From contig JAUXSK010000018.1 of the NCBI GenBank assembly GCA_030679995.1, positions 41,828-105,827 of the forward strand: 64,000 bases of DNA, given 5' to 3'. Below the pieces are notes generated by a model that saw only the letters and a program-made list of their open reading frames with translations, searched no databases and was not told the origin of the DNA. Numbering within the stretch: position 1 is the stretch's first letter; the number at the start of each line of letters is the position of its first letter. The DNA comes from Candidatus Moraniibacteriota bacterium (GTDB lineage: Bacteria; Patescibacteriota; Minisyncoccia; Moranbacterales; UBA2206). The position numbers were made by a program, and so were the translations under genes. This document shows positions 6,150 to 31,200 of the stretch, piece after piece.

Positions 6150-8822
6150 ATGAACATCCTACAAAAATCACTCGCTGCATCTCTTATTTCACTTATTATT
6201 TTCTCATCGGGAGCGCCGGCTATTCATGCCGATTCATTTTCGCTAGACCCGATTTCAGCAGCTGTTACCGATAAGGCTATGGGCGACATAATGGATTATT
6301 TCGGAATTAATCAGCAAGAGCTGAAAAACAATATCCAAACTATGAATGTTTCCCGCCAGAAAAAAATCCCGCCCCAAGTTTCCATCACTTTTACGCCGGC
6401 CAGCCCAGTGCCGGGAGAAAAAATAACCGCCACTGCCACTCCGACGTATTTTATGAATGATCCGTCCCAAATCTACTATACTTGGCTTCTGAAACGGTCC
6501 GGCAAAGATGGCGGCGCCGAAGATTACAAAGTCGCCGCTATGCGCATTATCGCCAGCGGTGATTTCGAGTATGAGCAGGAATCATATGCGGACGACGGTG
6601 AGAAAAGCGCGGGCGATTCCGATACTGGCGATTCTGATGGCTACTATGCCTTTTTCGGCGGCCAAGATCAGAAAGGCAAAAAGTCGCGATGTTTTGCCAA
6701 TGACATTTCTTCCGGCAATGATTATGAAATCACCTGCAAACACGCTTTCCCCACTAGTAGTCCGGGAGAAGTCGGCGACGGAGAATTCGGATTGGAAGAA
6801 GAAAAGTTTTGGCACACCGATCCAAAATCCAACGACACGGCCAACAGCGGGACTATGGATGAGGCTGCCGTGGTCGGACTCGGCAAAACCACTTTCAGTT
6901 GGATTTATGCCCCTGGTGATAAAGTCGGGGTCATCGTAGAGGGTATTTCGGTCGATCCGACCAGCTATGCCGATTCATCTTACAAAACGATGTGGGCTAT
7001 GCCCAAAAATACCGAGGACAATTGCAATAATGTCGATCTTGATTCATTGCCGGAAAACCGCACCGACACCCCTATCATAACTAAAATAGATTATACCGAC
7101 ACGGATACCGACGGCTATGAAGAATCTTATACTAAAGTCACCGCGACCACATCCTACAGTTATGCTACTGGTGATTATATCGTGAAAACCGGTGAATCTC
7201 CCGGCATCCAGATCCTAAAAACTACCAAAACTACGGTTACGACGCAAGATTGCATCTTGCCGCCGGCATCTTTGCTTGAACCATCCCCGGTTGAAATATG
7301 CGGCGATGCCACTACGCCAGCACACTGGCCAATTTCATCCTCGACTTCCAATCCTCGCTTCGTCACTGCCTCTGACGGATCCCTTGATTCAAGCACCGAT
7401 TTCAATAATTGTCTTGAGGATAATTTGGTCGACCCAGCACAAGGAACTTCCAATAAAAAATTGGATGTTTCACTTTCCTATTTGCCAGATACTCCGATGA
7501 ATGACCCTGCCGGAGATAATGCCGATGAGCTGGTTATCCAATCATCTATCTTGAACGCTGGAAATAAAGATTTTATCTATTACGATTGGAGCGTTTCCCT
7601 AGGCTCGTCCATTTCAGCCGATGATTGGATTGCGCTTGACGCCAACACCAAAAAACAAACCGGACTGGATCAGACCGCCGGAATCGGATTGAAATCATTA
7701 AAAATGAATTTGAATTTTGACAAACCGGAAGCGTTCTACGCCAAGATAACCTTGCGGGCAAAAGAAACTTCCTTTGAGAATTTGCAAAAAGAAGGCGTCG
7801 CCACCATCATAGTCCCTATTTACAATGCGCAAAACAAAATCGAGGTCTTCCCAACCAACGTTTCGGCCGACTTGGATATAACCCTCGATGTCGCACCCGA
7901 AGCCAAGCGTTGTGACAGCGGAATTGAAAAAACACTTTGCCCGATTGTAAAAAATGAGATCGTAGGATTAAAGACCGATATCGATCCAGATGATTATAAT
8001 TTAGTCTGGACGCTTAATGGAGAACCACTTTCATCGGCAAATCCGAACGCCGCTACGGCCTATTTCCCGGTACTGCAAGAAAAGGGAACCAAATACACGG
8101 TCAATTTAAACGCTTCCCATAAAACCTCCCAAGAAAAAATAACCCTCACGAAAACTTTTATAGTAGCGGATCCGGAAATCCATATATCCGCCGTCAATGA
8201 AAGCGCCGCCAACTCGACTTGCCTGCCGATCCTCCTGGGATATTATGTCGATCCGATAAATAAAAATCCTAATCCGGCGCCGGCAAGCGATGACTCTTTA
8301 TGGCCTGACTATAGCGAAGATTCTTTTGAAGCCTTGCAAGGCAAGGTAATCAAGTTAAAAACAACATCGAACGCGCTTTCTCCCAGCCAACCGTCTTGGA
8401 TTATCGACGGGGTAATCGTGACAACCGATAACGCGGCTTCCCTCGGCGCCACACTCAATGCCGACGGAACGCTCAGTTTTTCTGCCGATAAATCAACAGG
8501 CGCGACTTATTCGGTAGGCGTCGAAACGCTCTACACCCAAACTAATCTGGTCAAAAAAGCCCTGTATGGAAAATGGGGCATCCCCCTGACGGATTTCTAT
8601 GAAAAGCGCATCAGCAAATCAATTACGATCAAGGTAGCCGATCAGATCGATGTCAGCTCCGCCCTAGCCGCCCGAACGCAGGATAAAAAAATTCTAGCCA
8701 GCCTCTTTTCATCCATACCGGCCTATGTCAATTTCCTTTTCCGAATCATCCTTACTCTCATCTTAATCTTGTTTTCCACCGGATTGCTGTTTTCATTTTT
8801 TCCGAAACAAAACCAAGCCTAG
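6150..8822 (+). CDS. Large (890 aa) secreted surface protein with an N-terminal signal peptide and a C-terminal TM anchor. It is a putative T4SS-associated adhesin or surface factor.
   Basis: Signal-like MNILQKSLAASLISLIIFSSGAPAIHA, a Thr/Asp/Ser-rich body and a C-terminal hydrophobic helix ILTLILILFSTGLLFSFF. Confidence 0.55.
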   Translation: MNILQKSLAASLISLIIFSSGAPAIHADSFSLDPISAAVTDKAMGDIMDYFGINQQELKNNIQTMNVSRQKKIPPQVSITFTPASPVPGEKITATATPTYFMNDPSQIYYTWLLKRSGKDGGAEDYKVAAMRIIASGDFEYEQESYADDGEKSAGDSDTGDSDGYYAFFGGQDQKGKKSRCFANDISSGNDYEITCKHAFPTSSPGEVGDGEFGLEEEKFWHTDPKSNDTANSGTMDEAAVVGLGKTTFSWIYAPGDKVGVIVEGISVDPTSYADSSYKTMWAMPKNTEDNCNNVDLDSLPENRTDTPIITKIDYTDTDTDGYEESYTKVTATTSYSYATGDYIVKTGESPGIQILKTTKTTVTTQDCILPPASLLEPSPVEICGDATTPAHWPISSSTSNPRFVTASDGSLDSSTDFNNCLEDNLVDPAQGTSNKKLDVSLSYLPDTPMNDPAGDNADELVIQSSILNAGNKDFIYYDWSVSLGSSISADDWIALDANTKKQTGLDQTAGIGLKSLKMNLNFDKPEAFYAKITLRAKETSFENLQKEGVATIIVPIYNAQNKIEVFPTNVSADLDITLDVAPEAKRCDSGIEKTLCPIVKNEIVGLKTDIDPDDYNLVWTLNGEPLSSANPNAATAYFPVLQEKGTKYTVNLNASHKTSQEKITLTKTFIVADPEIHISAVNESAANSTCLPILLGYYVDPINKNPNPAPASDDSLWPDYSEDSFEALQGKVIKLKTTSNALSPSQPSWIIDGVIVTTDNAASLGATLNADGTLSFSADKSTGATYSVGVETLYTQTNLVKKALYGKWGIPLTDFYEKRISKSITIKVADQIDVSSALAARTQDKKILASLFSSIPAYVNFLFRIILTLILILFSTGLLFSFFPKQNQA

Positions 8823-8855
8823 ACTATATTTGCCAAAAATACTAATATATCAAAT

Positions 8856-9821
8856 ATGTATAAAAAATTAACCGCCCTTCTTTTAGCCGTATTTTGTCTT
8901 GCGCCGACCTTGGTGCTCGCAGGCGCCTTCGATTACAGGCCGATGGAAATGATTCCCGGCTTTGAAGCTGAAACCGTCGGCAATTTCTACACCTATATCG
9001 GAGCGGTCTATAAATTCGGCCTATGGACCGTAGGGATTTGCGCGATGTTTATGATCGGCATCGGCGGCTATATGTACATCATATCCGCCGGCAACAGTTC
9101 CAGTATGACCAAAGCAAAGGGAGTGATTATCGACGCTATCGCCGGTTTGATCCTGGCGCTGGTTTCCTTTCTGATCCTATACGAAATCAATCCTAATTTA
9201 GTCAAATTAGGCGGCAACGACATCGGCGGCAATACCGCTTTGACTGAAAAGATTATCACCTCAAAAACATTAACCAAGGGCTGTGAAAACTACGCCAATG
9301 ATTTTGAATCCGCTTCCGGAGGCGATAAAAACCTGAAATGCCTACTTATCGGCATCGCCAATGCGGAAAGCAATTGCAATCCTAGTGCGATCAGTAAACA
9401 TAACGCCTGCGGAATGATGCAAATCTTACCGGCAACTGCCGGGCAATCCTGTGAGGAACTGTTATCCAATCCGTCCGCCAGCATCCAAAAAGCCGCTTCG
9501 ATCATCGCTTCCTCCCGCAACAGTATTCCGTCATCTTCCGGCTTTTCACTGGGAACAAGTTATGCCCTCGCTAAAACTACGGTAAGCTATGGCGATTATA
9601 CCTATGACACCGGCAATGACGACTTGATCGCCGCTTATAACGCCGGCTCCGGAAAAATTGCCGCTACGCCGGGCAAAGCCGGTCCATTCGTAGTTTCAAC
9701 GGACTGCCCGAGCCCGACCACTCCCGCCTGGCAATGCCATATCAATCCGGGCGGATTTTCCGAAACCCAAAAATATGTTATGCGCGTCCAATCGTTCCAA
9801 GCGGCTTGCTTGGCTAAATAA
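8856..9821 (+). CDS. Secreted lytic transglycosylase (SLT domain, VirB1-like) with an N-terminal VirB2/TrbC-like hydrophobic hairpin.
   Basis: SLT catalytic signature AESNCNPSAISKHNACGMMQI (E-S...GLMQ type). The N-terminal signal peptide is followed by two hydrophobic helices separated by SAGNSSSMTKAKG. Confidence 0.6.
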   Translation: MYKKLTALLLAVFCLAPTLVLAGAFDYRPMEMIPGFEAETVGNFYTYIGAVYKFGLWTVGICAMFMIGIGGYMYIISAGNSSSMTKAKGVIIDAIAGLILALVSFLILYEINPNLVKLGGNDIGGNTALTEKIITSKTLTKGCENYANDFESASGGDKNLKCLLIGIANAESNCNPSAISKHNACGMMQILPATAGQSCEELLSNPSASIQKAASIIASSRNSIPSSSGFSLGTSYALAKTTVSYGDYTYDTGNDDLIAAYNAGSGKIAATPGKAGPFVVSTDCPSPTTPAWQCHINPGGFSETQKYVMRVQSFQAACLAK

Positions 9822-9836
9822 CCATCTTTCTATTTT

Positions 9837-10973
9837 ATGATCCTATCTAAAAAAATTTTTATATTTTCCTCAATCGCCCTAGTTATTGTCTTGATTCTCT
9901 GGGGAATCTACAGCCTGTCTTTTCGTAAGATTCCGGAACAGCTTGCCACCTTGAAAAGTCCAAGCCCATCATTATCGACGGCGTCCAAAAATGTTGCCGC
10001 AATTGAACCGCTCACCGATGAGGCTGTTTTATCACCCGCGCTTTCCCCGGACGGCGCATCCATCAGATATTATTCAAAAACCAATGGCAAGGCGTATGTA
10101 ATCAACCTTGCTGACCGCGATAAACGGGCTATTTCCGAGAAAGAATTGATCGGTTTATCCGACATAATCTGGTCGCCGGACAGATCCAAGGTTATTTCCG
10201 AGTTTTCAACCGCGACCGGCCGCTCCAAATTCTTTCTGTATGACTACGCACAAAACAAAGGCACGCAACTAAAAGACAATCTCGACACCGTCGTCTGGCA
10301 AAACAATGAAAAAATATTTTATAAATATTTCGACGCGAAAACCCAGACAAGAACCCTCAACTTCGCCAATCCGGACGGATCAAGCTGGCAGAAAATAACC
10401 GATTTGGCGATGAAGGATTTGCTTATCGCACCCATTCCGCGGACCAGTCTGGTTTCATTTTGGAACAAACCGGATGCTTTCACGGAAACCCTGATGCAAT
10501 CCTCGCCGGTTCTGGGCGGAGAAAGAAAAAACATTGTCAAAGGAAAATATGGAGCCGATTATCTCTGGAGCCAGGACGGCAATTCGCTTCTCGTGGGCAG
10601 TGTTGATGCCAAAGGCGGTTCAAAGCTGCAACTGGGCGTAACCAACAGCCTGGGCGGCGAATACCGGAATCTTGGCATTCCGACCCTTGTTTCTAAATGC
10701 ACCTGGTCAAAAAACAACAAAGCCATTTATTATGCTTTGCCTGGAGCGATTCCAACCGAAGCGATCTTGCCTAATGATTACTTAACCGACAAATTCCGTA
10801 CCAATGACACCTTTTGGAAAATCGATGTCGCTACGGGAGAAAAATCCCGCTTGGTAGATTTGGAAAACATAACTGCCGCCTATGATGCCGCCGACTTATT
10901 CCTGGATCCGGATGAAAGCCTGTTGTTTTTCACCAACAAGATCGATGGCAAGCTATATAAAATCACTCTCTGA
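9837..10973 (+). CDS. Membrane-anchored TolB-like (PD40) beta-propeller protein.
   Basis: N-terminal TM helix. Repeated SPDG/WSPD-type PD40 motifs (LSPDGASIRYYS, IWSPDRSKVISEF). Confidence 0.5.
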   Translation: MILSKKIFIFSSIALVIVLILWGIYSLSFRKIPEQLATLKSPSPSLSTASKNVAAIEPLTDEAVLSPALSPDGASIRYYSKTNGKAYVINLADRDKRAISEKELIGLSDIIWSPDRSKVISEFSTATGRSKFFLYDYAQNKGTQLKDNLDTVVWQNNEKIFYKYFDAKTQTRTLNFANPDGSSWQKITDLAMKDLLIAPIPRTSLVSFWNKPDAFTETLMQSSPVLGGERKNIVKGKYGADYLWSQDGNSLLVGSVDAKGGSKLQLGVTNSLGGEYRNLGIPTLVSKCTWSKNNKAIYYALPGAIPTEAILPNDYLTDKFRTNDTFWKIDVATGEKSRLVDLENITAAYDAADLFLDPDESLLFFTNKIDGKLYKITL

Positions 10974-17573: not shown

Positions 17574-17711
17574 TTAAGCCGTCGTAAGCCGTTTTCTGCC
17601 CTTAGTCCTTCTTCTTTTCAATACGGCTTGCCCGGTGGCGGTTTCATTTCTCTTGCGAAAACCATGCCTGTTTTTTCTTCTTGTGCTGGATGGTTGGTAT
17701 GTCTGGCTCAT
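17574..17711 (-). CDS. rpmH: 50S ribosomal protein L34. It is absent from the ORF track because it is shorter than 60 aa.
   Basis: My translation of the minus strand gives [45 protein letters not shown], a classic L34 sequence. It sits directly upstream of rnpA. Confidence 0.85.
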
Positions 17712-17714
17712 AAG

Positions 17715-18020
17715 ATTAGATTTTATATATATTATCCTTTAATTAGTCGCTATTGACTGATTCCAAGTTTATCAACTATCCCAGTTAAAGTCAACCTAAT
17801 AGCCCTTTTGCCAAGCATCAACCGATCCGATTACAGAGGCATCCGAAAAGCGCAGGCCCTTGATTTATTTATAATTTCATAATATACAGTAGTTAGGGTT
17901 TTTTTAGGACTTGCCAACAGCTTATCAACAGACTTATCCCCACTCTTTCCTTAGACATTCGATTTTCAGCGTGATATACTTCAGTTTACACAATTCTTAT
18001 TCTTAATCTTAACCTTCCAT
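17715..18020. promoter_or_regulatory. dnaA upstream region carrying DnaA-box-like 9-mers, a candidate oriC half and the dnaA promoter.
   Basis: TTATCAACT, TTATCAACA and TTATCCCCA variants of TTATCCACA. AT-rich, and located between the divergent rpmH and dnaA. Confidence 0.45.
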
Positions 18021-19397
18021 ATGACCAACGAGGAACTTTGGCGGGCCGCTTTAGGGGAAATAGAGCTTTCGATCTCGAAGGCGAACTTCATCACATGGTT
18101 TAAAAACACCTCCATCCTATCAAACAATGATGGTCGCGTCATAATCGGCGTTCCTAACGGATTTGCCAAAGAATGGCTTGAAAACAAATACAATCTCTAT
18201 ATACTCAAAGCTTTGCGAAATATCCAGCCCTCTATAAAAGAGGTTTCTTGCGCCATAGGTTCCGAAAAGGAAAACGCCTTCCGAGAAAACCAGGTCGATG
18301 CGATCATCCCTCCAAAAAGGGTCGTTTTTGAAAAGCCACCGGTCGAAAAAAACTTTCAAATAAGCCAAGAAAATAACCTAAATCCTAAGTATATCTTTGA
18401 GAATTTTATCGTCGGTTCTAGTAATGAGCTGGCTAGGGCGGCCTGCTATGCCGTATCGCAAAATTTGGGCCGTATTTATAATCCGCTTTTCATTTATGGC
18501 GGAGTGGGCTTGGGAAAAACCCATTTATTGCAATCTATCGGCAATGAAATTCTTAAAAAAAATCCTTCCAAGAAAGTAAAATATATCACCTCTGAGCGCT
18601 TCACTAATGAACTGATCGACTCTATCCGGACCCAAAAAATAAACGAATTCAAAGAACATTACCAGAAAATCGACCTTTTAATCATCGACGATGTGCAATT
18701 CCTGTCCGGTAAAGAAAAAACTCAGGAAGAGTTTTTCCATATCTTTAATTACCTGTACCAACTAAACAAACAGATAGTTTTAAGCAGTGACCGCGCACCG
18801 AAAGCTATTCCGACTTTGGAAGAAAGGCTTCGTTCACGCTTTGAAGGCGGGATGATCGCAGATGTTTCCAAAGCTGATTTTGAAACAAGAATGGCTATTT
18901 TAAGCAAAAAGGCGGTTGATGAAGGGTTGACAATTTCCACCACCGCCCTTGATTTTATCGCCCAAAATATCACCCACAACATCCGCGAATTGGAAGGCGC
19001 GCTGAATCGCGTCATCGTCTCGTCGCAACTTACCAACCGGGAACCCACCTTAGATTATGTTTCCGCCCTATTATCAGACATTATCGCCAGTGGCAAAAAA
19101 AAGGGCATAACCCATAAACACATCATCGACGCCGTGTCTTCTTTTTATGATATTGACACCGCTGATTTGATTATGAAGAATAGAAAAAAAGAGGTTGTAA
19201 AACCCCGACAAGTAGCAATGTACCTTATGCGTAGTGAACTCCAATATTCCTACCCGGGAATCGGCGAAAAATTAGGTGGCAGAGACCACACCACCGCTAT
19301 CCATGCTTATGATAAAATATCCAAAGAATTAGAGTTCAATAAAAAACTACTTGAGGACGTCGCTTCTATTAAGGAGCAACTTTACAATATATCCTGA
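18021..19397 (+). CDS. dnaA: Chromosomal replication initiator DnaA.
   Basis: AAA+ Walker A GGVGLGKTHLL, sensor motifs and a C-terminal DnaA-box-binding domain. Confidence 0.95.
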   Translation: MTNEELWRAALGEIELSISKANFITWFKNTSILSNNDGRVIIGVPNGFAKEWLENKYNLYILKALRNIQPSIKEVSCAIGSEKENAFRENQVDAIIPPKRVVFEKPPVEKNFQISQENNLNPKYIFENFIVGSSNELARAACYAVSQNLGRIYNPLFIYGGVGLGKTHLLQSIGNEILKKNPSKKVKYITSERFTNELIDSIRTQKINEFKEHYQKIDLLIIDDVQFLSGKEKTQEEFFHIFNYLYQLNKQIVLSSDRAPKAIPTLEERLRSRFEGGMIADVSKADFETRMAILSKKAVDEGLTISTTALDFIAQNITHNIRELEGALNRVIVSSQLTNREPTLDYVSALLSDIIASGKKKGITHKHIIDAVSSFYDIDTADLIMKNRKKEVVKPRQVAMYLMRSELQYSYPGIGEKLGGRDHTTAIHAYDKISKELEFNKKLLEDVASIKEQLYNIS

Positions 19398-19672
19398 TAA
19401 CTTGTGGATAAACTGTATCCCAACCATTATCTATCCCTGTGTATATCTTCTGAATTAACCATATCCGCTGTGTGCACCCAAAAATAAATAATCCAATGTC
19501 TTGACTTATTCCCCAGCTATGAAAATCAGTGATAAAATATCAACTTATCAAATTATCCACAGTAAATTTACTTTATCTTAGCCATAAATAAGACATATCC
19601 CCAGAAATCCAATCCCTATATAATAAACAATAAACTTATAAATATTTAAAGATAAATTATTATATTAATACT
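19398..19672. promoter_or_regulatory. dnaA-dnaN intergenic region containing perfect DnaA boxes, the probable oriC.
   Basis: TGTGGATAA at 19404-19412 (reverse orientation) and TTATCCACA at 19553-19561, plus several one-mismatch boxes. The region is very AT-rich. Confidence 0.55.
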
Positions 19673-20827
19673 ATGAAACTAACTTGTACCCAAGAAAATT
19701 TTAAAAAAGCTGTCTTTAATTCGGAACGGATGGTTTCCAGACAAAACACCTTACCGATTTTAAATAATATTTTATTTGAAACTGAAAACGGGGGATTGAA
19801 ACTTTCTGCCACAAATCTTGAAATTGGGGTTTCCGTCCAAATCGGGGCAAAAATAGAAGAAGAGGGGAAAATAACTATTCCGGCTAAATTAATCAGTAAT
19901 TTCGTTAATAATCTGCCAGCTGGGGAAAATATATCCCTGGAAGTGATAGATCAAAGCCTTAAAATAAAAAGCGGTTCATCCAAAGCTGTAATAAAAGGCT
20001 TGTCAGCAGAGGATTTTCCTTTAATACCGAAAAAACAAACGGATTTCATATTGAATATACCAAGCTTGAAATTAAAAAATATAATTTCCAAGGTTATTAC
20101 ATGCGTGGCTTTTAATGAAACACGCCAAGAATTGACCGGGGTGAATCTTGTTTTAAAGGAAAAAGAAATTTTATTTGCCGCTACGGACAGCTTCCGTTTG
20201 GTCGAAAGCAGTTTGAAACTGGAAGAAGTGAATGTAAGCAGTGTTTATAAAGAATTTTTAGAGAAAAAAAATACATTCATTATTCCGGCAAATACCTTTG
20301 TGGAATTGGCGCGGATAATATCATCGGATATTGAAAGTGATATTAAAATAGTTTTTGAGGAGGGGCAGGTATTTTTTGAAATAGACGGTACGGATGTGGT
20401 TTCCCGCCTGATTAACGGTAAATATCCGGATTATAAACATATCGTGCCGGTAGAATTCAAAACCCGGATAGTGGGTGAAAAAAACATTTTTCAAGGAGCG
20501 CTTAAAATGTCCAGCGTTTTTTCAAGCGGGAAGACTAATGAAGTGGTGCTTAAAATCGATGCTGAGGAAAATAAACTCCTGATCGAAGCTAGGAGCGTAG
20601 AAGTGGGTGAAAACTCTTCAGAGCTCACTGTGGACATCGTGGGGTCATCTCAAGAAGTAGTTTTTAATTCAAAATATTTATTGGACGGGATAAACACGGT
20701 TATGACTTCGAAAGTTGCTATTCTTATGAATAATGCTTCCTCGCCGGTAGCGATCAAGGAAATCGATGAAAAAACCGGAGAAGTTTTAGAAGGGTATGTT
20801 TATATTGTAATGCCGATAAAGAATTAA
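19673..20827 (+). CDS. dnaN: DNA polymerase III beta sliding clamp.
   Basis: About 384 aa with the three-domain clamp pattern, directly downstream of dnaA. Confidence 0.9.
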   Translation: MKLTCTQENFKKAVFNSERMVSRQNTLPILNNILFETENGGLKLSATNLEIGVSVQIGAKIEEEGKITIPAKLISNFVNNLPAGENISLEVIDQSLKIKSGSSKAVIKGLSAEDFPLIPKKQTDFILNIPSLKLKNIISKVITCVAFNETRQELTGVNLVLKEKEILFAATDSFRLVESSLKLEEVNVSSVYKEFLEKKNTFIIPANTFVELARIISSDIESDIKIVFEEGQVFFEIDGTDVVSRLINGKYPDYKHIVPVEFKTRIVGEKNIFQGALKMSSVFSSGKTNEVVLKIDAEENKLLIEARSVEVGENSSELTVDIVGSSQEVVFNSKYLLDGINTVMTSKVAILMNNASSPVAIKEIDEKTGEVLEGYVYIVMPIKN

Positions 20828-20914
20828 GCTCAGTTTTATCGCGATAAATCGTTGGGACGTCGCGGGGAATTAATTTCTCGGCAAATTGTCCCATAATAAA
20901 TCGAAGGTCATTTT

Positions 20915-21196
20915 TTGCAAATCAACCAGCTCTTTCGATTTGATGATGATCGCTATTTTTTCTTTCCACGAGGCGATGAGCATTTTGTTGTTGTTGATAT
21001 TCACTTCTGGGGAAAAGGTCATTTTGTCTTCCGGCAAAAGTGTTTGGTTATGTGCGAAGAATGTGGTGGTCAGTGGGTGTACTCAGGCTCGGGGGAGCAA
21101 ATGCAGTATCGGTTCTGTAAAAAATGCGGGGCGGAGGAGTTAGTGATCTATCCACTCGGTAAAAAAAGAATAGCATTATGTAGGAACCAAGTATGA
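20915..21196 (+). CDS. Small zinc-ribbon hypothetical protein.
   Basis: CEECGG...(17 aa)...CKKCGA, a C4 zinc-ribbon pattern. It was preferred over the overlapping 20886-21143 frame. Confidence 0.3.
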   Translation: MQINQLFRFDDDRYFFFPRGDEHFVVVDIHFWGKGHFVFRQKCLVMCEECGGQWVYSGSGEQMQYRFCKKCGAEELVIYPLGKKRIALCRNQV

Positions 21197-21279
21197 CCGC
21201 AAACCAAAAAAATAATTAAAGAAGGTGAAAAAGTTTAATTCACAAGGCGGAAACTCATCGAAATTCCCCGCCTTTTTAT

Positions 21280-21597
21280 TTGCTTAAAAGCCGGCTTTTG
21301 ATTATGCTGTATGATATGAAATCGCTTAAAAACTATTTGGTCAAAAGGGATGTTTTTCAACCCAAGACGCTGGATGACCAGACGGTTTTTTATGTTTTCC
21401 GCAAGGTTATCAAGGAGGAATTCGGCAATGTGGGCATTGAAAAGCTGATTCCGGATTATTACAAAAACAAGACGATATTCGTGAAATCAGACAGTTCGGC
21501 TTGGTCTTCGGAGATGTGGCTGCAAAAGGATCGGATCGTGCGCAAGATGAACGCCGAATTGGGCGAAGGATCGATTGAGAAAATCAAAGTCAAATAA
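21280..21597 (+). CDS. DUF721 (DciA-like) protein.
   Basis: IFVKSDSSAWSSEMWLQKDRIVRKMNAELGEGSIEKIKV matches the DUF721 core. It lies near dnaN as in many genomes. The start may be the internal Met at ~21313. Confidence 0.55.
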   Translation: MLKSRLLIMLYDMKSLKNYLVKRDVFQPKTLDDQTVFYVFRKVIKEEFGNVGIEKLIPDYYKNKTIFVKSDSSAWSSEMWLQKDRIVRKMNAELGEGSIEKIKVK

Positions 21598-21625
21598 AAA
21601 ACCTCGGATTTCCGAGGTTTTTTTG
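21598..21625. terminator. Bidirectional rho-independent terminator between the convergent DUF721 gene and the PBP1a gene.
   Basis: AAAAACCTCGGATTTCCGAGGTTTTTTT: a GC stem flanked by an A-run and a T-run. Confidence 0.7.
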
Positions 21626-21634
21626 CGAAGTCTA

Positions 21635-24244: not shown

Positions 24245-26200
24245 CTACGATAATTCCGGGTTTTTATCAAGCTCGTCGGCGGGGCTGTTTTCGGATATTT
24301 GAAGTTTATAGCCATCCTTGATTTTATCCCAAATTTTCAAGGCATATCGTGACGGGGTTTTAATTTTAGCCGCGTCAAGAAAACCAAGCTTCGCGAGGGA
24401 GGTGATAGTTTCCAGATTGATGCCTAGATAGGCGTATTTTTCTTTGCCGATAGCTTTTAGCTTGTCCATCAGTAAAAGTTGCTCCAAATAGGCGGTGGCA
24501 TCGCTTCGCGTAAGGATTCCGGACTGCCCTGAAAAACCAGTAGCGCTGTTAAAGAGTCTCTTAACCGATCCGATAGCCGTTTTTAAGCGCAAGTCTACTT
24601 TTTTTTGAAAGTTTTTGTCCGTAATAATCCCAGCGTCCAGCTGGGCCTTTAAAATTTTATAGGCACTATCGTAGAAAGCGGATACACAATCTAAATAATC
24701 TCCGCCTCGCAGCCGGCAAACCATCGCTCGGACGTAATGTGGTATGGGTATCGAACGGGTGCCAAAAGCTTCAGTGGAGATGATGTCCTGCATATGCATC
24801 GCTCCTCCTTCCGCATAGATTCCTCTTCTGTCGCTATTGATGCGGTTGAATAATGTAAGCGGCAGGGCCTCCCTGTTTATTTTTTGAAAAATATGGGCGA
24901 TTTCATGTCCAAGCATAACGGAAATAACGGACTCGACCGTCCTTTTTTTATTTTCAGTGTGTCCCAATTCGTAGACTTTTCGTTTTTGATCAATGTTGTT
25001 CGTTTTAAATTCAGGTCCGGTTACGACTTGCCATTTGCCGTCTGGCGCAGGGTTTTCCCTGGATGGATCATATTCTAAACTTGGATAGACGCTTTTTTCC
25101 TTACAATTTTCCAATAACTCCTCGACCCAGGGGAGATATTGTTCAACGGACATTTTCGCATCGAGAATTTTTTTAGGATCCAGGCCTTTTTTTTGGATGT
25201 TTTCATTTGTGGATAAGGCATTTTCCAAATAAAGCTTTTCTATTTGATCGGCATACCCCTCGATTTCTTTACTGATCTGCTCCCTGTCTCCAGAAGCGTT
25301 GTATTCTTGGGAGGCGCCGTAAATGAATTTATCGAAACGGGCTAGTGTTTTTTCTGGATCGGAAAGTCCATAAAAAAGCTGGATGTCGTCCGGATGCTTT
25401 TTGGCGGGATGGGCTAGGGCGCTTTCTTCTTTTGAAATCGTTTCGTCGCCCAAAATGTCTGCCGTATTTTTGGCGGCTATTCCAAAAAAAACTTGGTTAG
25501 CGATCATTTCATTGACTCTTTTTTTGTAGAGAGTCAATATTTCGCGTAAACCTTCGTTCAGGCCTGAAGATGGCGTCGCGGGAGAACCGAGGCTGGCGAG
25601 TTTTTCCTTGAGAAAATGTTTAAAAATGCGTAGCTGGCTGATTTTTTTTAAAGAAATGTCCGGAGTCAATAGGATAGTGGCTCTTTCCGGCAAGGGCGTC
25701 TCGGGATTGATTCGCAGGCTTCCGTCAACCGCTTTTTGTCGGGAGAGCCTGAGAAAGAAATTATTATCGGAAAAGTTTATGGATCTTCCAAAAAGTTCGG
25801 CGACTTCCTTTGAGGAAACGGTTTTTTCATCAATCAATTGCCTGATAGCTTGGCGGTTTTTCAAGATGGAGGCTGTGACAGCTTGGATCGTTTCCCCGTC
25901 CAATTCTATCCCGGTAGTGGCGAAAAAGTCTTTGCGTCCCGCATCGGATAGGAAATATTCGGGATAGAAAGTATGGCTGACAGATACTAATTTGTAGATA
26001 GTCTCGAAATTTCCCCCTAGTTCATTTTCAAAATCCAGAAGCTCCGCGATTTCTTTTTTAGATAATTCTATTTTTGGCAACTCCCCAGACTCGATTTTCT
26101 CCAAATTTTCAATTTTTTGATCGACGCCAGCCGATGCGCGTTCCGGATACAGTCGAGTTGTTTTTTGGGTTTCAAAATTCATAAAGTCCGAACTAAACAC
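24245..26200 (-). CDS. Large HExxH zinc-metallopeptidase-like protein. It is a putative gluzincin, possibly a DUF1704/MATCAP-type carboxypeptidase.
   Basis: HEIAHIF, with a candidate third zinc-ligand Glu 27 residues later (YAEGGAMHMQ). The DUF1704 assignment is from memory and needs an HMM search. Confidence 0.45.
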   Translation of the reverse strand: MFSSDFMNFETQKTTRLYPERASAGVDQKIENLEKIESGELPKIELSKKEIAELLDFENELGGNFETIYKLVSVSHTFYPEYFLSDAGRKDFFATTGIELDGETIQAVTASILKNRQAIRQLIDEKTVSSKEVAELFGRSINFSDNNFFLRLSRQKAVDGSLRINPETPLPERATILLTPDISLKKISQLRIFKHFLKEKLASLGSPATPSSGLNEGLREILTLYKKRVNEMIANQVFFGIAAKNTADILGDETISKEESALAHPAKKHPDDIQLFYGLSDPEKTLARFDKFIYGASQEYNASGDREQISKEIEGYADQIEKLYLENALSTNENIQKKGLDPKKILDAKMSVEQYLPWVEELLENCKEKSVYPSLEYDPSRENPAPDGKWQVVTGPEFKTNNIDQKRKVYELGHTENKKRTVESVISVMLGHEIAHIFQKINREALPLTLFNRINSDRRGIYAEGGAMHMQDIISTEAFGTRSIPIPHYVRAMVCRLRGGDYLDCVSAFYDSAYKILKAQLDAGIITDKNFQKKVDLRLKTAIGSVKRLFNSATGFSGQSGILTRSDATAYLEQLLLMDKLKAIGKEKYAYLGINLETITSLAKLGFLDAAKIKTPSRYALKIWDKIKDGYKLQISENSPADELDKNPELS

Positions 26201-26294
26201 TAAGTAGTTTAATTATAGGACTATATTATGATTTTTCCAAAAAAAAATAAGCTTGCGAATAGCCCATTGATATTCCGGAGGAGAAGCGCCGGCT

Positions 26295-27239
26295 TTAAAC
26301 ATCCGCCAATCGTCCAAGTGATTGCAAAACGCTTTTTATGAAAACAGCGGAATTTTTCATTTTTTCCGAAGGAAAGCCGATCTGGTCATTCAATTCAAAA
26401 ACGAACGGTTCCGCCCCGTTTTGGACACCAAGATCGATAGAATAGACCGGACGGTTGAATTTTTCATCGATGCGCTCTTGTATTTTTTTCACCCTATCGA
26501 TGATGAATGCCGGGATATTTTCAAGGGGGACTTCTTTGATCGATCCGCCCTGGGCGACATTGGCCAGAAGCGATCCCTCCTTGGGCGCGCGTACATGACT
26601 CAAGACGATTTTGCCATCCGCGATCACTATGCGCAAATCATGGTGGCCATCGATAATCCCGGGGATTCCGCGGGAAGTATCGACAAATTCTTGAAGAATA
26701 TATTCGCGACCCTCTGGGATATCTGCTTGTTTTATTTTTTCCGCGCGATCAATCACGATCCCGTTGCCGCACATCCCGTTGGCGGGCTTGAGCACGACCA
26801 ACGCGGACGGAGAAAATGATTCCAGTTGCCGCAATAGTCCGGCCCTGTCTTTGATCTGGGAGCTTTTGGGCATAAAATCGCCGATAAATTCCTGAGTCGC
26901 ATTTTTATTGTTGCACAATCTTTTAAAATGGATATTATTCAAAGTTTTAGAGCCGGCATCTTCAGTCGGAAAAGACATCCCGCCGCTCCGATCGAAAACG
27001 GCATCCGCCTCGATGCTTTCCGTTTCCGGTTCAAAAAAAATTCCATTATAGCGATAGGCGTTATTGAAGACCAAAGGGCCTGTAGCGTCGGTTTTGCCGC
27101 TGGCGATATACATATCGAAGCCTTCAGCTAAGCCTTGTTTGAAAAAATCATGATAGACGCTCCTTTTCGCATCGAAAGTGGAGAAGGGATCCTTTTCCAT
27201 CTTACGCCTATGGAAATACATCACTATTTTTTTTCGCAT
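26295..27239 (-). CDS. ATP-grasp domain protein (amidoligase).
   Basis: LVVLKPANGMCGNGIVI and YILQEFVD...HHDLRIVIADGKIV are ATP-grasp core motifs. Confidence 0.6.
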   Translation of the reverse strand: MRKKIVMYFHRRKMEKDPFSTFDAKRSVYHDFFKQGLAEGFDMYIASGKTDATGPLVFNNAYRYNGIFFEPETESIEADAVFDRSGGMSFPTEDAGSKTLNNIHFKRLCNNKNATQEFIGDFMPKSSQIKDRAGLLRQLESFSPSALVVLKPANGMCGNGIVIDRAEKIKQADIPEGREYILQEFVDTSRGIPGIIDGHHDLRIVIADGKIVLSHVRAPKEGSLLANVAQGGSIKEVPLENIPAFIIDRVKKIQERIDEKFNRPVYSIDLGVQNGAEPFVFELNDQIGFPSEKMKNSAVFIKSVLQSLGRLADV

Positions 27240-28135
27240 ACGGTTAAATATTCAGCTAATTTTTTAATTTCAGGTGAAATATTGATATCCAGCGTGAGTG
27301 CCGGGCAACTGTTAACCTCGAATATCACAGGACTTCCGTCCGGCCGTTCGATGACATCTACGCCTGCGACCTGGATATGCGTCGTTCGGGCTGCCAAAAC
27401 AGCCTCTTTTTTGATACGGTTTCCGACTGTGGAAATATCGACAAATTCTTCAGTCGCCCCCAAATGCACGTTGTTCCGGAAAGCTTCTTTTTCAGAGCGG
27501 ATTTTTTTCTCAGTTACGGCCACTTTGCTTCCAGTCACAAGGATTCGATATTCAAAATCATTGGGGATGAATTCCTGCAGGAAGATTTCCTTGCGGTCAT
27601 CCTGACTGGATCTTTCCAGGATGATTTTTTCCAGCTCACTGATATTTTTGGCCAAAAAAACACCCGCCCCTTGCGAAGAGTTGCATTCTTTGACTACGAT
27701 CGGCAATTTCAGATATGTTACGGCATTGCGCAGGTGCTTTTTCGGATATGATCCGGCGAAATAAGTCTTGGGAATGGAAATCCCTGCCAACGCCAGGCGG
27801 AACATCTGGGTTATCTTGGCGGCATCGGATGCGTCCTTAGTTTGTTCATGGTAGCGGTCGATCAGATTGACTCCGGATTTTTTCGCTATGTGCGCCAGCA
27901 TATGGGCAACACCCCTGTTCCGGCCGACCTTTCTGATATAAATATTGTTCCAGGATGTCACCGGTTTCCCGCAAATCGACAATCCGACTTTGTTTTTTTC
28001 TATTTGAATTTCGGTCTCTTCTAGACTGGAAACGGAAAAATCCACTCCTTTCCGGGCGAGTTCGGCGCCGGTCAGGCGTAAAAATTTTTTCATTTTCGGT
28101 CCGGTCTTCTTCTTGTTTTTTAATATCAGCAACAT
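27224..28135 (-). CDS. RimK-family alpha-L-glutamate-ligase-like ATP-grasp enzyme.
   Basis: PIVVKECNSSQGAGVFL, LQEFIPNDFEYRILVTGSKV and GVDVIERPDGSPVIFEVNSCP are RimK-like motifs. Confidence 0.7.
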   Translation of the reverse strand: MLLILKNKKKTGPKMKKFLRLTGAELARKGVDFSVSSLEETEIQIEKNKVGLSICGKPVTSWNNIYIRKVGRNRGVAHMLAHIAKKSGVNLIDRYHEQTKDASDAAKITQMFRLALAGISIPKTYFAGSYPKKHLRNAVTYLKLPIVVKECNSSQGAGVFLAKNISELEKIILERSSQDDRKEIFLQEFIPNDFEYRILVTGSKVAVTEKKIRSEKEAFRNNVHLGATEEFVDISTVGNRIKKEAVLAARTTHIQVAGVDVIERPDGSPVIFEVNSCPALTLDINISPEIKKLAEYLTVCEKK

Positions 28136-28171
28136 AAGCGTTTTTAGTTACTTATTATAAAAACGGCTGGG

Positions 28172-29146
28172 TCAAATCTGTTTGTCATCGGAAACTGTCG
28201 TGTTTAATTTCAGGATGAAGTTTATGATGTCCTTGATGACATTCCTGGATTTGCCGTGAGTCGGGTTGTAATGGATATAGATGTCAGGCTTCCCGTTTAT
28301 TTCCAGGATTCCGAATGTCTGAGCGGCAGGATCCTCGGATATATTTTCGCAGATTATGTCGATGCCGGCAAGATAATAGCCGACCGCATCGGCGGCCTTG
28401 ACGCAAATGGAAATAATTTCTTTGTTGATCGAATCCGTGGCATCCCGGGTTTCCCCACCTTCAGCCAGGGAGGAACTTTTTTTGATAGAAACGGCTTCTT
28501 CGGCATCTAGGACGGAATCAAGCGAAAAACCTTGCTCGCGTAAAATTATTTCCAGCGCCCGGTCGATCGGAGTTTTTCGGCGGGTATGCTTCTGTTTTTT
28601 CTGGATGAGGGTGGCTATCGTGGATTTACCATCGCCGATGATTCTCGGCGGAATCATTTCCAGCGCCCCGATAACCTTTTTATCCAGTATGAGGATGCGG
28701 TATTCTTTGCCGAAGATCATTTCCTGGGCGATAAGCGATCTGAAATTCAAAATCTCTTTGATTATGACGGCTTTGGCCTCCTCTGCATTTTTTATGTAAG
28801 GGAAAATACCCTGGCTGTTTGAACCGGCGGAATCTTTGATGATTATGGGGAATTTTAGGTTGTTGAGTTTCTTTTCAACTTCTCCGGGTGTGAAATTTTT
28901 TCTGAAAAAAAAGACCGTAGTCGGCGTGGGAAGCGACTGGCGCCGGAGCAGCGTATAAGTCAGGTCCTTGTACGCCGTTGCGCCAGCGATGCTGATAAAG
29001 TTTTTGGCGATTCTGAATTTTCTTGTGATAAGAAAAGCCTTGCCACCTACGTGGATATAATAACAGCGCCTTTCCGGGATAACTTCTTCGAATGTCCCTC
29101 CCATTTCCTCGACGACTTTCCGGATCAATAAAGTGTTTTTTATCAT
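28172..29146 (-). CDS. ATP-grasp enzyme resembling the N-terminal ATP-grasp domain of cyanophycin synthetase and RimK.
   Basis: FPIIIKDSAGSNSQGIF, IIGDGKSTIATLI and GIDIICENISEDPAAQTFGILEINGKP motifs. Confidence 0.6.
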   Translation of the reverse strand: MIKNTLLIRKVVEEMGGTFEEVIPERRCYYIHVGGKAFLITRKFRIAKNFISIAGATAYKDLTYTLLRRQSLPTPTTVFFFRKNFTPGEVEKKLNNLKFPIIIKDSAGSNSQGIFPYIKNAEEAKAVIIKEILNFRSLIAQEMIFGKEYRILILDKKVIGALEMIPPRIIGDGKSTIATLIQKKQKHTRRKTPIDRALEIILREQGFSLDSVLDAEEAVSIKKSSSLAEGGETRDATDSINKEIISICVKAADAVGYYLAGIDIICENISEDPAAQTFGILEINGKPDIYIHYNPTHGKSRNVIKDIINFILKLNTTVSDDKQI

Positions 29147-30537
29147 TTTTTCACGTCGATTAAAAATTTGTTCAAATTTATCTTCCCGATAATCATCGGA
29201 TATTTCATATGCGATCGGTCGACCAAGGTTATTTTCGTGGGGATGGTTATCGTATCCATAGTGAATTCGATATTGATCATCGGACGGTAGGTGTAGCCAT
29301 TGGATGATTTTACAGGAATGGTGGAAACGATATCCGGAATATCCTTATAAATTTCCCAGCGCTCTTTTTTATCCAATTTCTTCAAATTTTCATAAGGCAT
29401 TTTTAATTTTTCAAATTCATCGATCGTTTTTTCAAAGCCCAGCGTTTTGGCCAGGCTGTCATCGATGGATGACCAGTCGGCGCCCGTGTCGATTTTAGCT
29501 TCCACTTCTATCGTCTTGCCGTCTTTTCCGACCAATTTGATTTTTTCCACGGTGCCGATGACTTTCCGGCCGGAAATTTCCTCGACTTCTTCCTCGATTT
29601 CTCCCCCGAATAGATCCATACCCATCCGCACTCCGCGGGCGATAGTTTTTATTTTGAGGCCGGAAACGCGCCTGAGCCTTTCGGCGAGGCCGGCCAGATT
29701 GGCGACTTGGATGGAAAGTCCCGGGCGGGCATTAAGCTCCAGGATGACTGGGCCGTGATTTTTATCGATAGCCACATCCACGCCTAGGAAGCCCAGATTG
29801 GAAATCTCTTGGGACTTCGAGGCCAGGAGCAGGATATCTTTCCAGTAGGGGATGCGGATGCCGCTGACGGGGAAATTCGTGCCGGGAATTTTTTCAATAA
29901 ATTTATTTTTCCCCTGGATAGCCGTCGTAGTCACTCCGGTGGCCATATCGATTCCGACGCCGACAGCGCCTTGTTGCAGGTTGGCTTTGCCTCCGGATTC
30001 CCGGGTGGGCAGGCGCAACATCGCCATCACTGGGACTTTATTGAAGACGATGACGCGGATATCCGGAATGCCCTTATATGAATAGGGTTTGAATAATTTC
30101 AGAAGCTGCAGGCGCTCTTCAAAAAATGCGATATCCGGCGTGTTGGACAGGGAAAATGAACCGTCCAAAATATTGCGGATGTGGCTGCGCAAATCTTCGA
30201 TAGTGATGAGCGAGCGGTCAGCCTTGACCCATGCGTCATCCCGCCCCTTCTTTTTTCCGTAAACCACGATGATGCCTTCGCCACCAAAACCGCGATTAGG
30301 CTTCAGAGCGAAACTTGAAGGAAGGGATTGCCAATCGAAATTTTCCAAATCTTCGATAGTTTTGATTTTGGCGATCAAGCTCGGCACGGCTATGCCGCTT
30401 TTTTTCAGGACTCGCTTGCTGAGTAACTTGTCGTCAGCCAGCCGTTTGGCCCGAAGCCGATTATACGGGCGAATGAACTCAAGATTTCTTGAGTTCATAC
30501 CGAGAAGCTTTTGGCTGTTTTTGAAAAATTCAAACAT
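29143..30537 (-). CDS. Fusion of an ATP-grasp ligase (alpha-L-glutamate-ligase-related) to a C-terminal retropepsin-like aspartyl-peptidase domain (Pfam 'Zn_protease').
   Basis: N-terminal FALKPNRGFGGEGIIVV...GKANLQQGAVGVGID...ILELNARPG, and C-terminal AKIDTGADWSSID (a DTGA aspartic-protease signature). Confidence 0.65.
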   Translation of the reverse strand: MFEFFKNSQKLLGMNSRNLEFIRPYNRLRAKRLADDKLLSKRVLKKSGIAVPSLIAKIKTIEDLENFDWQSLPSSFALKPNRGFGGEGIIVVYGKKKGRDDAWVKADRSLITIEDLRSHIRNILDGSFSLSNTPDIAFFEERLQLLKLFKPYSYKGIPDIRVIVFNKVPVMAMLRLPTRESGGKANLQQGAVGVGIDMATGVTTTAIQGKNKFIEKIPGTNFPVSGIRIPYWKDILLLASKSQEISNLGFLGVDVAIDKNHGPVILELNARPGLSIQVANLAGLAERLRRVSGLKIKTIARGVRMGMDLFGGEIEEEVEEISGRKVIGTVEKIKLVGKDGKTIEVEAKIDTGADWSSIDDSLAKTLGFEKTIDEFEKLKMPYENLKKLDKKERWEIYKDIPDIVSTIPVKSSNGYTYRPMINIEFTMDTITIPTKITLVDRSHMKYPMIIGKINLNKFLIDVKK

Positions 30538-30540
30538 CGG

Positions 30541-31200
30541 CTAGAGTTTTTTAATAATATCTTTGAAACGGATATATTCGCTCACCCGCAATCCGGTCCA
30601 GCGGCCGATCATAACATTAAAGGGTATGGTGAATAGGATGACCCAGGGATAGGCGACCAAGAGTTTTATCAATGCTCCCCAACTGGCGATATAAAAGCCT
30701 GCTACGGAAATGACCAGGGTTTCAAACGCCAAGATGAGCGCGGTCTTATTGCCTTTTTCAATTTGCACGGCGACGAATTTTTCTACCAGCGTGATCATAA
30801 TCAAAATAGGGAAAATTGAAACGGAAGCCAGTCCGGTCCTGCGCAGGTTGCCGCCGAAAACAAGCAACAATAGGATTAAAACGGCAACGACGGTCAACAT
30901 TATGGCGACACGGGGAAGGTAGAGGAGCCGGAAGGGCTTGAGGATGAAGCGCATCAGCATCCCGATGAAAATGACCGCTAAAAAAATCGCCACGCCATAA
31001 CGCAATCCGTTAGTAGCCAGGAAGGCGAAGGTGATGATAAGGGGCGTGTAGATGCCAAAAGCTTTGATACCGACGACTTGGCGCAAGAAAGCGATCAAAG
31101 TCGCGATAATCGGCAACATCAGGATTAAGATGATCGTTTCAAAAGGCACGCCTTCGATAAGGAAAAAACGGATTATGGGGCTGATGTTCAAGTCCATCAA
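30541..31200 (-). CDS. 7TM membrane protein, first gene of the ATP-grasp cassette. It may be related to the 7TM modules linked to RimK-like ligases.
   Basis: Seven predicted hydrophobic helices in 219 aa. It is spaced 4 nt from the next gene on the same strand. Confidence 0.5.
   Translation of the reverse strand: MMDLNISPIIRFFLIEGVPFETIILILMLPIIATLIAFLRQVVGIKAFGIYTPLIITFAFLATNGLRYGVAIFLAVIFIGMLMRFILKPFRLLYLPRVAIMLTVVAVLILLLLVFGGNLRRTGLASVSIFPILIMITLVEKFVAVQIEKGNKTALILAFETLVISVAGFYIASWGALIKLLVAYPWVILFTIPFNVMIGRWTGLRVSEYIRFKDIIKKL

Follow-up and report, generated by a model that had tools for sequence, protein, structure and literature searches.

A putative, highly divergent MATCAP/DUF1704-like zinc peptidase encoded in an Rlo/RimK-like ATP-grasp ligase cassette of Patescibacteria

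The sequence analysed here is a 64,000-nucleotide stretch of contig JAUXSK010000018.1 (positions 41,828 to 105,827 of the forward strand; assembly GCA_030679995.1) from a Candidatus Moraniibacteriota bacterium, hereafter called the window, and the gene in question is the single open reading frame (ORF) occupying positions 24245-26200 of its minus strand, which encodes 651 aa when counted from a GTG codon. We consider it moderately likely that the product is a cytoplasmic gluzincin from a divergent branch of the MATCAP/DUF1704 superfamily which trims or recycles the products of the ATP-grasp ligases encoded beside it. It is placed there as a remote homologue on a very divergent branch, and the evidence from family consensus sequences, from scans of individual members, from structure comparison and from the zinc motif points to the MATCAP superfamily and to no other.

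The initial annotation of the gene was based on the string HEIAHIF followed by a Glu 27 residues downstream in YAEGGAMHMQ, which was taken for a gluzincin arrangement, and both the ORF and the motif positions proved to be as described: HEIAHIF corresponds to aa 432-438 of the window protein, YAEGGAMHMQ contains E464, and 27 residues separate H436 from E464. The alignment of 76 homologues, whose mean column identity is 19%, shows no variation at G88, H432, E433, H436, E464 and Y571, and at least 90% conservation at Q439, N442, G466, R548, E573 and Q574. Because the zinc-site residues are invariant across 76 such divergent homologues, the HExxH of the window protein is, as judged from the alignment, a genuine motif and not a chance occurrence. 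The predicted layout is the classical gluzincin arrangement as well: in the structure models, strands 390-395, 402-404 and 409-413 precede the HExxH helix (422-444), and the next long helix past it (462-479) starts with the E464 region. This succession of a sheet, an HExxH helix and a Glu on the following helix is the one that defines gluzincins in MEROPS (clan MA, subclan E), and the invariant residues and the modelled elements agree with the initial annotation in this respect.

At the position of HEIAH, 72 of 147 relatives carry HExxxH (mostly HEIEGH) and the other 75 HExxH, and both forms coexist inside each major clade, which implies that one-residue insertions or deletions have occurred repeatedly in the metal-binding motif. 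The HExxxH motif of PF08014 is therefore found in those 72 relatives and is absent from the window protein itself, while the third ligand of the PF08014 type, a Glu in E-(E/x)-G on the following helix, is represented by the predicted ligand E464 in AEGGA. Across the family the third-ligand motif is [AS]E[GA]GA, located 32-33 residues past the first His; counted from the Glu of the zinc motif, E464 lies 31 residues past E433, the corresponding distance being 32 in the HExxxH members.

The Pfam family PF08014, formerly DUF1704, is now named 'MATCAP'. That MATCAP is an enzyme has been known only since 2022, and to our knowledge no biochemical function has been established for its relatives in bacteria (DUF1704/QEGLA). 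The majority consensus of the window family, which is an artificial sequence, matched PF08014 with E=2.6e-6 and 27.1 bits (gathering threshold 27 bits), its stretch 319-436 aligning with profile positions 111-211, which comprise the pre-sheet helix, the sheet, HEIEGH and the segment up to the Glu ligand. The consensus of the clade containing the window protein gave E=3.8e-5 with its best stretch, 516-600, on profile positions 259-343, which is the RLFR...YLEQ region with the invariant Tyr; a consensus of HExxxH members only gave 2.8e-5 and one half-sample consensus 2.7e-4. TIGR02421 (QEGLA) was the top NCBIfam match of the family consensus with an E-value of about 1e-5, at 24.5-25.1 bits and so without reaching the cut-off of 338.65 bits. 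The PF08014 and TIGR02421 matches are collinear and fall into two stretches spanning profile positions of about 111-343 out of 365, and no PF08014 match was obtained with one reversed and two shuffled consensus sequences used as controls. When the 76 members were scanned against Pfam one by one, PF08014 gave the best E-value (1.9e-4) and tied for most members matched, with only three of the 76 matching it at E<=1. The other families found in such scans, M48, Zn_peptidase_2, eCIS_core (DUF4157) and BSP, were rejected, each being matched by no more than three of the 76 members, at E-values of at least 0.002 and with no structural support.

Comparison of structures pointed in the same direction. 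A model of aa 205-640 built with AlphaFold2 (AF2) from 78 sequences had a mean predicted local distance difference test score (pLDDT) of 93.5 and a predicted template modelling score (pTM) of 0.91, and its search with Foldseek against 350,542 PDB chains placed at ranks 1 and 2 chains A and C of 7z5g, human apo MATCAP, with probability 0.97. All the remaining matches had probabilities of at most 0.18, including M1 and M2 gluzincins at 0.11-0.16. The alignment with 7z5g covers 370 columns versus a 332-residue target, with a template modelling (TM) score of 0.42-0.44 when normalised by the target.

There are several results which count against this placement. The initial annotation had suggested membership of DUF1704, to be verified by hmmscan, and that scan gave no PF08014 or TIGR02421 match for the window protein even at E<=1, so that by any curated threshold, including the 27 bits of PF08014, it is not a DUF1704 member; nor did the direct scans return any other relevant Pfam or NCBIfam match. 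Consensus sequences of the HExxH members only, of the even half of the alignment, and of clusters 1 and 2 gave no PF08014 match either, and therefore the sequence signal is modest and carried by the HExxxH-type members. Searches of PDB sequences with phmmer and with the profiles A1, A2 and A4 (the last made from catalytic domains of HExxxH members only) yielded noise and no MATCAP. The structural match, although at the top of the list, has poor scores when these are taken by themselves (E=0.057, TM 0.34-0.44, root-mean-square deviation 12 Å), possibly as a result of a differing orientation of the lobes, and Foldseek with the full-length model (pLDDT 78) retrieved only helical-repeat and membrane-protein noise. 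The suggested kinship with MATCAP was thus retained in part, as a remote relationship seen in the consensus matches, in Foldseek and in the HExxxH of the relatives, with direct profile scans speaking against it.

The same shortcomings, that is the missing direct match to a hidden Markov model (HMM), the Foldseek E-value above 0.01 and the weak matches of a few members to Zn_peptidase_2, eCIS_core, M48 and BSP, would be expected if the protein were a generic HExxH zincin unrelated to MATCAP, with the signals arising by chance from the zinc motif and the helical content. We regard this explanation as quite improbable, as the PF08014/TIGR02421 matches run collinearly well beyond the motif, the reversed and shuffled controls were negative, MATCAP was the sole PDB entry retrieved with high probability, and the rare HExxxH variant is common to the family and to MATCAP.

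The family itself is large and almost entirely confined to Patescibacteria. A word-indexed protein search found only six relatives of the window protein, while a profile made of these six and run against 1.84 billion representatives retrieved 453 proteins at E<=0.001, 213 of them at E<=1e-30, most being 590-650 aa long. The family comprises about 450 clusters at 50% identity, for which every source name found is 'hypothetical protein', and no natural member examined attains a Pfam threshold. The 76-sequence profile used in the word-indexed protein search gave six proteins, none annotated with PF08014, and a tblastn search of plasmids with the catalytic domain of the consensus found nothing. 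A literature search returned no paper pairing MATCAP with ATP-grasp proteins, and the terms 'DUF1704' and 'QEGLA' appeared only in unrelated work. At locus L024 (loci compared in this work are numbered with the prefix L) the family variant P0075 (6001-8535) has 844 aa with about 200 extra N-terminal residues and is followed by a gene for a Peptidase_M24 (methionine-aminopeptidase-like) protein, and at L013, from Moranbacteria GW2011_GWE2_36_40, the homologue is split into overlapping ORFs at 8007-9059 and 9046-9864, which reflects a frameshift or pseudogene or else a mistake in the assembly.

The true start of the window gene is probably the ATG at 26182 (M7), since M7 is nearly invariant among the aligned relatives and MDP1833847.1 (P0158), a 'hypothetical protein [Candidatus Moranbacteria bacterium]' encoded on a 196-kb contig of a metagenome-assembled genome, has the corresponding length of 645 aa. 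The latter shares a 90%-identity cluster with P0035, a 335-aa NCBI fragment which is 100% identical to the window protein. No signal peptide, transmembrane or hydrophobic segment was seen in the N-terminus of the window protein as read from its sequence, which suggests that the enzyme is probably cytoplasmic. The start of the PF08014 matches, near residue 320, falls on profile position 111, and on this basis the MATCAP-like domain is taken to extend roughly over aa 205-640. The part preceding it is confidently modelled (pLDDT of about 88-95 over aa 30-200 of the full-length model) and contains the conserved residues R21, E58 and G88; it is a reasonable guess that this domain of about 200 aa serves in substrate recognition. 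The features of the gene and of its surroundings are collected in Table 1.

Table 1 Coordinates of the peptidase gene, its predicted domains and motifs, and the adjoining features of the window
Feature	Position in window	Strand	Remarks
7TM (seven-transmembrane) membrane protein	30541..31200	-	PF14402 E=4.1e-31; NF052267 RloB positions 313-507 of 508
RloC-like ATP-grasp + RimB/RloA-like retropepsin fusion	29143..30537	-	PF14397 (ATPgrasp_ST) E=5.3e-69
ATP-grasp ligase 2, cyanophycin-synthetase-like	28172..29146	-	TIGR02068 E=1.9e-51, positions 212-473 of 862
ATP-grasp ligase 3, RimK-like alpha-L-glutamate-ligase type	27224..28135	-	RimK E=3.5e-25
ATP-grasp ligase 4, GSH-S_ATP/RimK-like, immediate upstream neighbour	26295..27239	-	GSH-S_ATP E=2.4e-8, RimK E=4.2e-7
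Promoter-like TTGGAA-17-TATAAT	26212..26240	-	10/12 sigma-70-like consensus matches; consensus match only
MATCAP-like zinc peptidase ORF	24245..26200	-	651 aa from GTG; 645 aa from ATG at 26182
Family-specific N-terminal domain	25589..26182	-	aa 7-204, mostly helical; outside PF08014-matching region
MATCAP/DUF1704-like gluzincin catalytic domain (predicted)	24281..25588	-	aa 205-640; AF2 model, Foldseek, consensus matches
HEIAH, putative zinc-binding/catalytic motif (H432, E433, H436)	24893..24907	-	invariant in 76 sequences
AEGGA with E464, predicted third zinc ligand (codon 24809-24811)	24800..24814	-	E464 invariant
Y571 codon, YLEQ motif	24488..24490	-	invariant Tyr, inside second PF08014/TIGR02421-matching stretch
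Class A penicillin-binding protein, 843 aa	21635..24166	-	directly downstream of peptidase gene; L002 orthologue Transgly + Transpeptidase
Intrinsic-terminator-like hairpin, 12-bp stem then T run	21596..21623	-	strong; closes gene row

The gene stands, as the initial annotation had it, at the end of an ATP-grasp ligase operon: it is directly preceded, on its own strand, by four ATP-grasp genes and a gene for a 7TM protein (26295-31200), neighbouring genes being separated by short gaps or overlapping slightly. The match of the 7TM protein to RloB is confined to the C-terminal 7TM part, and the protein has no transglutaminase-like domain. The fusion protein scores 297.3 bits with TIGR02291, just under the cut-off of 314.2, and 41.9 bits with PF05618 (E=1.1e-10, aa 327-461; cut-off 27), and contains the active-site motif DTGA in the translated string 'KIDTGADW'. 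Together with the 7TM_transglut-type protein these domains, a TIGR02291/RimK ATP-grasp and a PF05618 retropepsin, make up a cassette of the Rlo/Rim type. As retropepsins work in dimeric form, a dimeric ligase-protease is implied by the fusion, which also puts the ligase and the endopeptidase on one cytoplasmic polypeptide. The score of ligase 2 with TIGR02068 is well below the whole-protein cut-off, the likeness to cyanophycin synthetase being limited to the ATP-grasp part; ligase 3 scores 94.9 bits with TIGR00768, under the cut-off of 143.4, and all NCBIfam matches of ligase 4 are far below cut-off.

The proximity of the peptidase gene to ligase genes recurs in other genomes. The order 7TM protein, RloC-retropepsin, one or more ATP-grasp proteins, peptidase was found in L002-4, L007-10 and L013 from Moranbacteria, Parcubacteria and other Patescibacteria, and in L021 from Beckwithbacteria. 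Three Saccharibacteria loci (L018-20) have, in this order, the peptidase, the retropepsin and a RimK-like ligase, in L005 and L014 an ATP-grasp gene adjoins the peptidase gene, in L022 it is one gene off, and in L011 the upstream neighbour is a CofE-type gamma-glutamyl ligase, which has a different fold. Altogether about three quarters of the informative loci have a ligase gene either next to the peptidase gene or a single gene off, and because this linkage extends over several phyla and several operon architectures, a functional coupling can be argued for; the ligase/peptidase pair proposed in the initial annotation is therefore not peculiar to the window. In L011 the homologue of CofE-type F420-0:gamma-glutamyl ligase (7204-7923, plus strand) and a dihydrofolate reductase (9838-10377, minus strand) flank the peptidase gene, which hints at gamma-glutamyl, perhaps folate-like, chemistry in that lineage.

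The coupling is weakened by the remaining quarter or so of the informative loci, namely L001, L006, L012, L016, L017 and L024, in which no ligase neighbour was found; no ATP-grasp gene lies nearby in the last of these. Within the window, the search revealed neither rpsF (S6) nor a gene-encoded poly-acidic substrate candidate beside the operon. Moreover, the 95-nt gap upstream of the peptidase ORF contains the sigma-70-like site listed in Table 1 (26240-26212), on the basis of which the peptidase gene may be transcribed separately or also from its own promoter. In the Peribacteria-like loci L001 (4493-6268) and L012 (9935-11689), which have no ligase neighbour, a gene for a fused ABC exporter (ABC_membrane + ABC_tran) comes next. 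The only long ORF of the window with an acidic C-terminus (604 aa, ending in ...REFDDEEE; 2975-4789, plus strand) is far from the operon.

What the analysis establishes is the class of fold, the conservation of the catalytic residues, the signal of remote homology and the linkage of the genes; a peptidase activity, its exo- or endopeptidase mode and its substrate are inferred, as follows. H432 and H436 of the HExxH and E464 of AEGGA are the predicted zinc ligands, activation of the water molecule would fall to E433, and Y571, a candidate transition-state-stabilising residue by analogy with other gluzincins, may assist in catalysis. The ligases of the cassette probably build acidic (Glu/Asp-rich) peptide tails or polymers, which the MATCAP-like peptidase would probably trim from the C-terminus in the manner of MATCAP and TMCP on acidic tubulin tails, and the fused retropepsin might complement it by cutting internally. 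There are precedents for each part of such a system. Enzymes of the MATCAP/TMCP type cleave Tyr and Glu from the C-terminus of the acidic tubulin tails (PMC10499314). RimK-type ligases add alpha-linked glutamates, the retropepsins RimB and RloA cleave poly-glutamate, and the known target of the RimB-RimK module is the C-terminus of ribosomal protein S6 (PMC12239564). The Rlo system has been tied to hypo-osmotic tolerance and cell shape, its physiological substrate being not known (PMC12239564). In Photobacterium damselae, the canonical QEGLA gene RS17025 and a gene annotated as GshB with the neighbouring tag RS17020 were induced 27- and 38-fold, respectively, at low salinity (PMC10308900). In view of these precedents, the trimming of acidic tails or polymers is the best-supported reading.

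Instead of trimming protein tails, the enzyme could alternatively degrade a polymer or oligopeptide that occurs free and serves for storage or as an osmolyte, being then a MATCAP-like endo- or oligopeptidase that acts in a cyanophycinase-like way. In favour of this, one of the ligases is similar to the ATP-grasp module of cyanophycin synthetase, the presence of four different ligases suggests a hetero-oligomer or polymer in free form, and the window shows no protein with a tail that could serve as substrate; the work on Rlo considers free poly-alpha-glutamate as a substrate, with glutamate as an osmolyte (PMC12239564). This alternative appears plausible but on the whole somewhat unlikely to us, given that the characterised relatives, MATCAP and TMCP, are carboxypeptidases acting on protein tails and that the Saccharibacteria loci carry a module of the RimB-RimK type, whose target is a protein C-terminus.

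The gene downstream of the peptidase bears on another explanation, according to which the system works on the cell wall, the ligases extending the stem peptides of peptidoglycan or its precursors and the peptidase trimming or recycling what they have extended. A class A penicillin-binding protein (PBP) gene directly follows the cassette on the same strand in the window, L002-4, L007, L009 and L013 (in L010 it is on the opposite strand), and a gene for an M23 peptidase adjoins the MATCAP-like gene in L012 on its upstream side. In addition, rlo mutants have been associated with cell shape, with lysis under hypo-osmotic conditions and with sensitivity to antibiotics acting on the cell wall, and a link to peptidoglycan has been speculated (PMC12239564), to which the synteny with the PBP gene is perhaps relevant. 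A role in the cell wall nevertheless has little probability in our estimation, because the PBP adjacency is limited to Moranbacteria/Parcubacteria-like loci and is absent from those of Saccharibacteria, Beckwithbacteria and Peribacteria, the peptidase has no signal peptide, and RloA and RimB cleave poly-glutamate and not stem peptides.

Beyond the PBP gene, the region of about 17600-20900 of the window looks like a replication origin region (dnaA-dnaN), judging by ORF lengths, position and GC skew. It contains a 458-aa ORF (18021-19397, plus strand) followed by a 384-aa ORF (19673-20827, plus strand), the latter being equal in length to the DNA polymerase III beta gene found at the same position in L002, the closest relative with an 82% identical peptidase; a 93-aa ORF (20915-21196) equals in length the DciA-domain gene of L002, and the cumulative GC skew has its minimum at 18-20 kb. 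In L002 there is a glutamate dehydrogenase gene (8820-10055) between dnaN and the DciA-like gene, and in the window the interval at about 20830-21630 is too short to accommodate such a gene.

Among the known systems, the ligase part of the cassette is closest to Rim (RimA-RimB-RimK) and Rlo (RloA-RloB-RloC) of Pseudomonas, with which it shares the combination of ATP-grasp (TIGR02291/RimK), PF05618 retropepsin and 7TM_transglut proteins and the principle of ligase-plus-peptidase cassettes acting on glutamate-rich substrates, as would hold for the window by analogy. The general principle, in which a peptidase accompanies an ATP-grasp ligase, is not new, being established for RimK/RimB. Unlike the separate, secreted RloA of Pseudomonas, the retropepsin of the window is fused to a cytoplasmic ligase, the 7TM protein has no transglutaminase-like domain, and three more ATP-grasp ligases and a MATCAP-like metallopeptidase are added, whereas no metallopeptidase has been described for Rim or Rlo of Pseudomonas.

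With regard to the peptidase, pentapeptide HExxH variants of the M49 family exist. Dipeptidyl peptidase III (MEROPS M49) is similar in having an HExxxH-type motif in place of HExxH (PMC10499314), but no sequence or fold match to it was found, and the spacing of the Glu ligand and the domain architecture differ. TIGR02421 QEGLA proteins have a similar Glu-Gly-x-Ala-like ligand motif, and the Photobacterium QEGLA gene lies by a GshB-like ATP-grasp gene just as the upstream neighbour in the window is of the GSH-S_ATP type; they differ in their length (a 368-position model versus about 600-650 aa in the window family), in their hosts (gamma-proteobacteria versus the candidate phyla radiation) and in the motif itself, QEGLA versus [AS]E[GA]GA.

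MATCAP and TMCP (KIAA0895L, KIAA0895) have the unusual HExxxH and a third ligand in an 'EEG' motif (PMC10499314), the catalytic and the ligand Glu being E281 and E316 in MATCAP and E329 and E364 in TMCP2 (PMC10499314). The likeness consists in the metal motif on one helix with the Glu of E-x-G about 31-35 residues on, in the atypical HExxxH found at the same position in half of the window family, and in the company of ATP-grasp amino-acid ligases, which are TTL/TTLL in eukaryotes and RimK/RloC-like in the window. The window protein differs in its HExxH, in the extra N-terminal domain of about 200 aa and in its low identity (about 12% in the Foldseek alignment); it is below the Pfam threshold and undetectable by profile-to-sequence search, and it is bacterial (Patescibacteria), with no tubulin as a substrate. 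What is new is a MATCAP-like clade that carries an additional N-terminal domain, toggles between HExxH and HExxxH and has a conserved home in Rlo/RimK-like cassettes, by which a previously unannotated 'hypothetical protein' family of about 450 clusters is placed as a distant branch of the MATCAP superfamily. For this family and for the Rlo system it offers the hypothesis that ligases make acidic tails or polymers which two different peptidases remove. It is conceivable, if in our judgement unlikely, that the pair of ATP-grasp and MATCAP-like proteins is an ancient bacterial module for writing and erasing tails, antecedent to the eukaryotic TTL/TTLL-MATCAP cycle; such a module would span the gamma-proteobacterial QEGLA/GshB-like pairs and the Patescibacteria family and act by reversible addition and removal of C-terminal amino acids on a protein or peptide, and the tubulin code, with its logic of ligase and carboxypeptidase, may have a precedent in prokaryotes.

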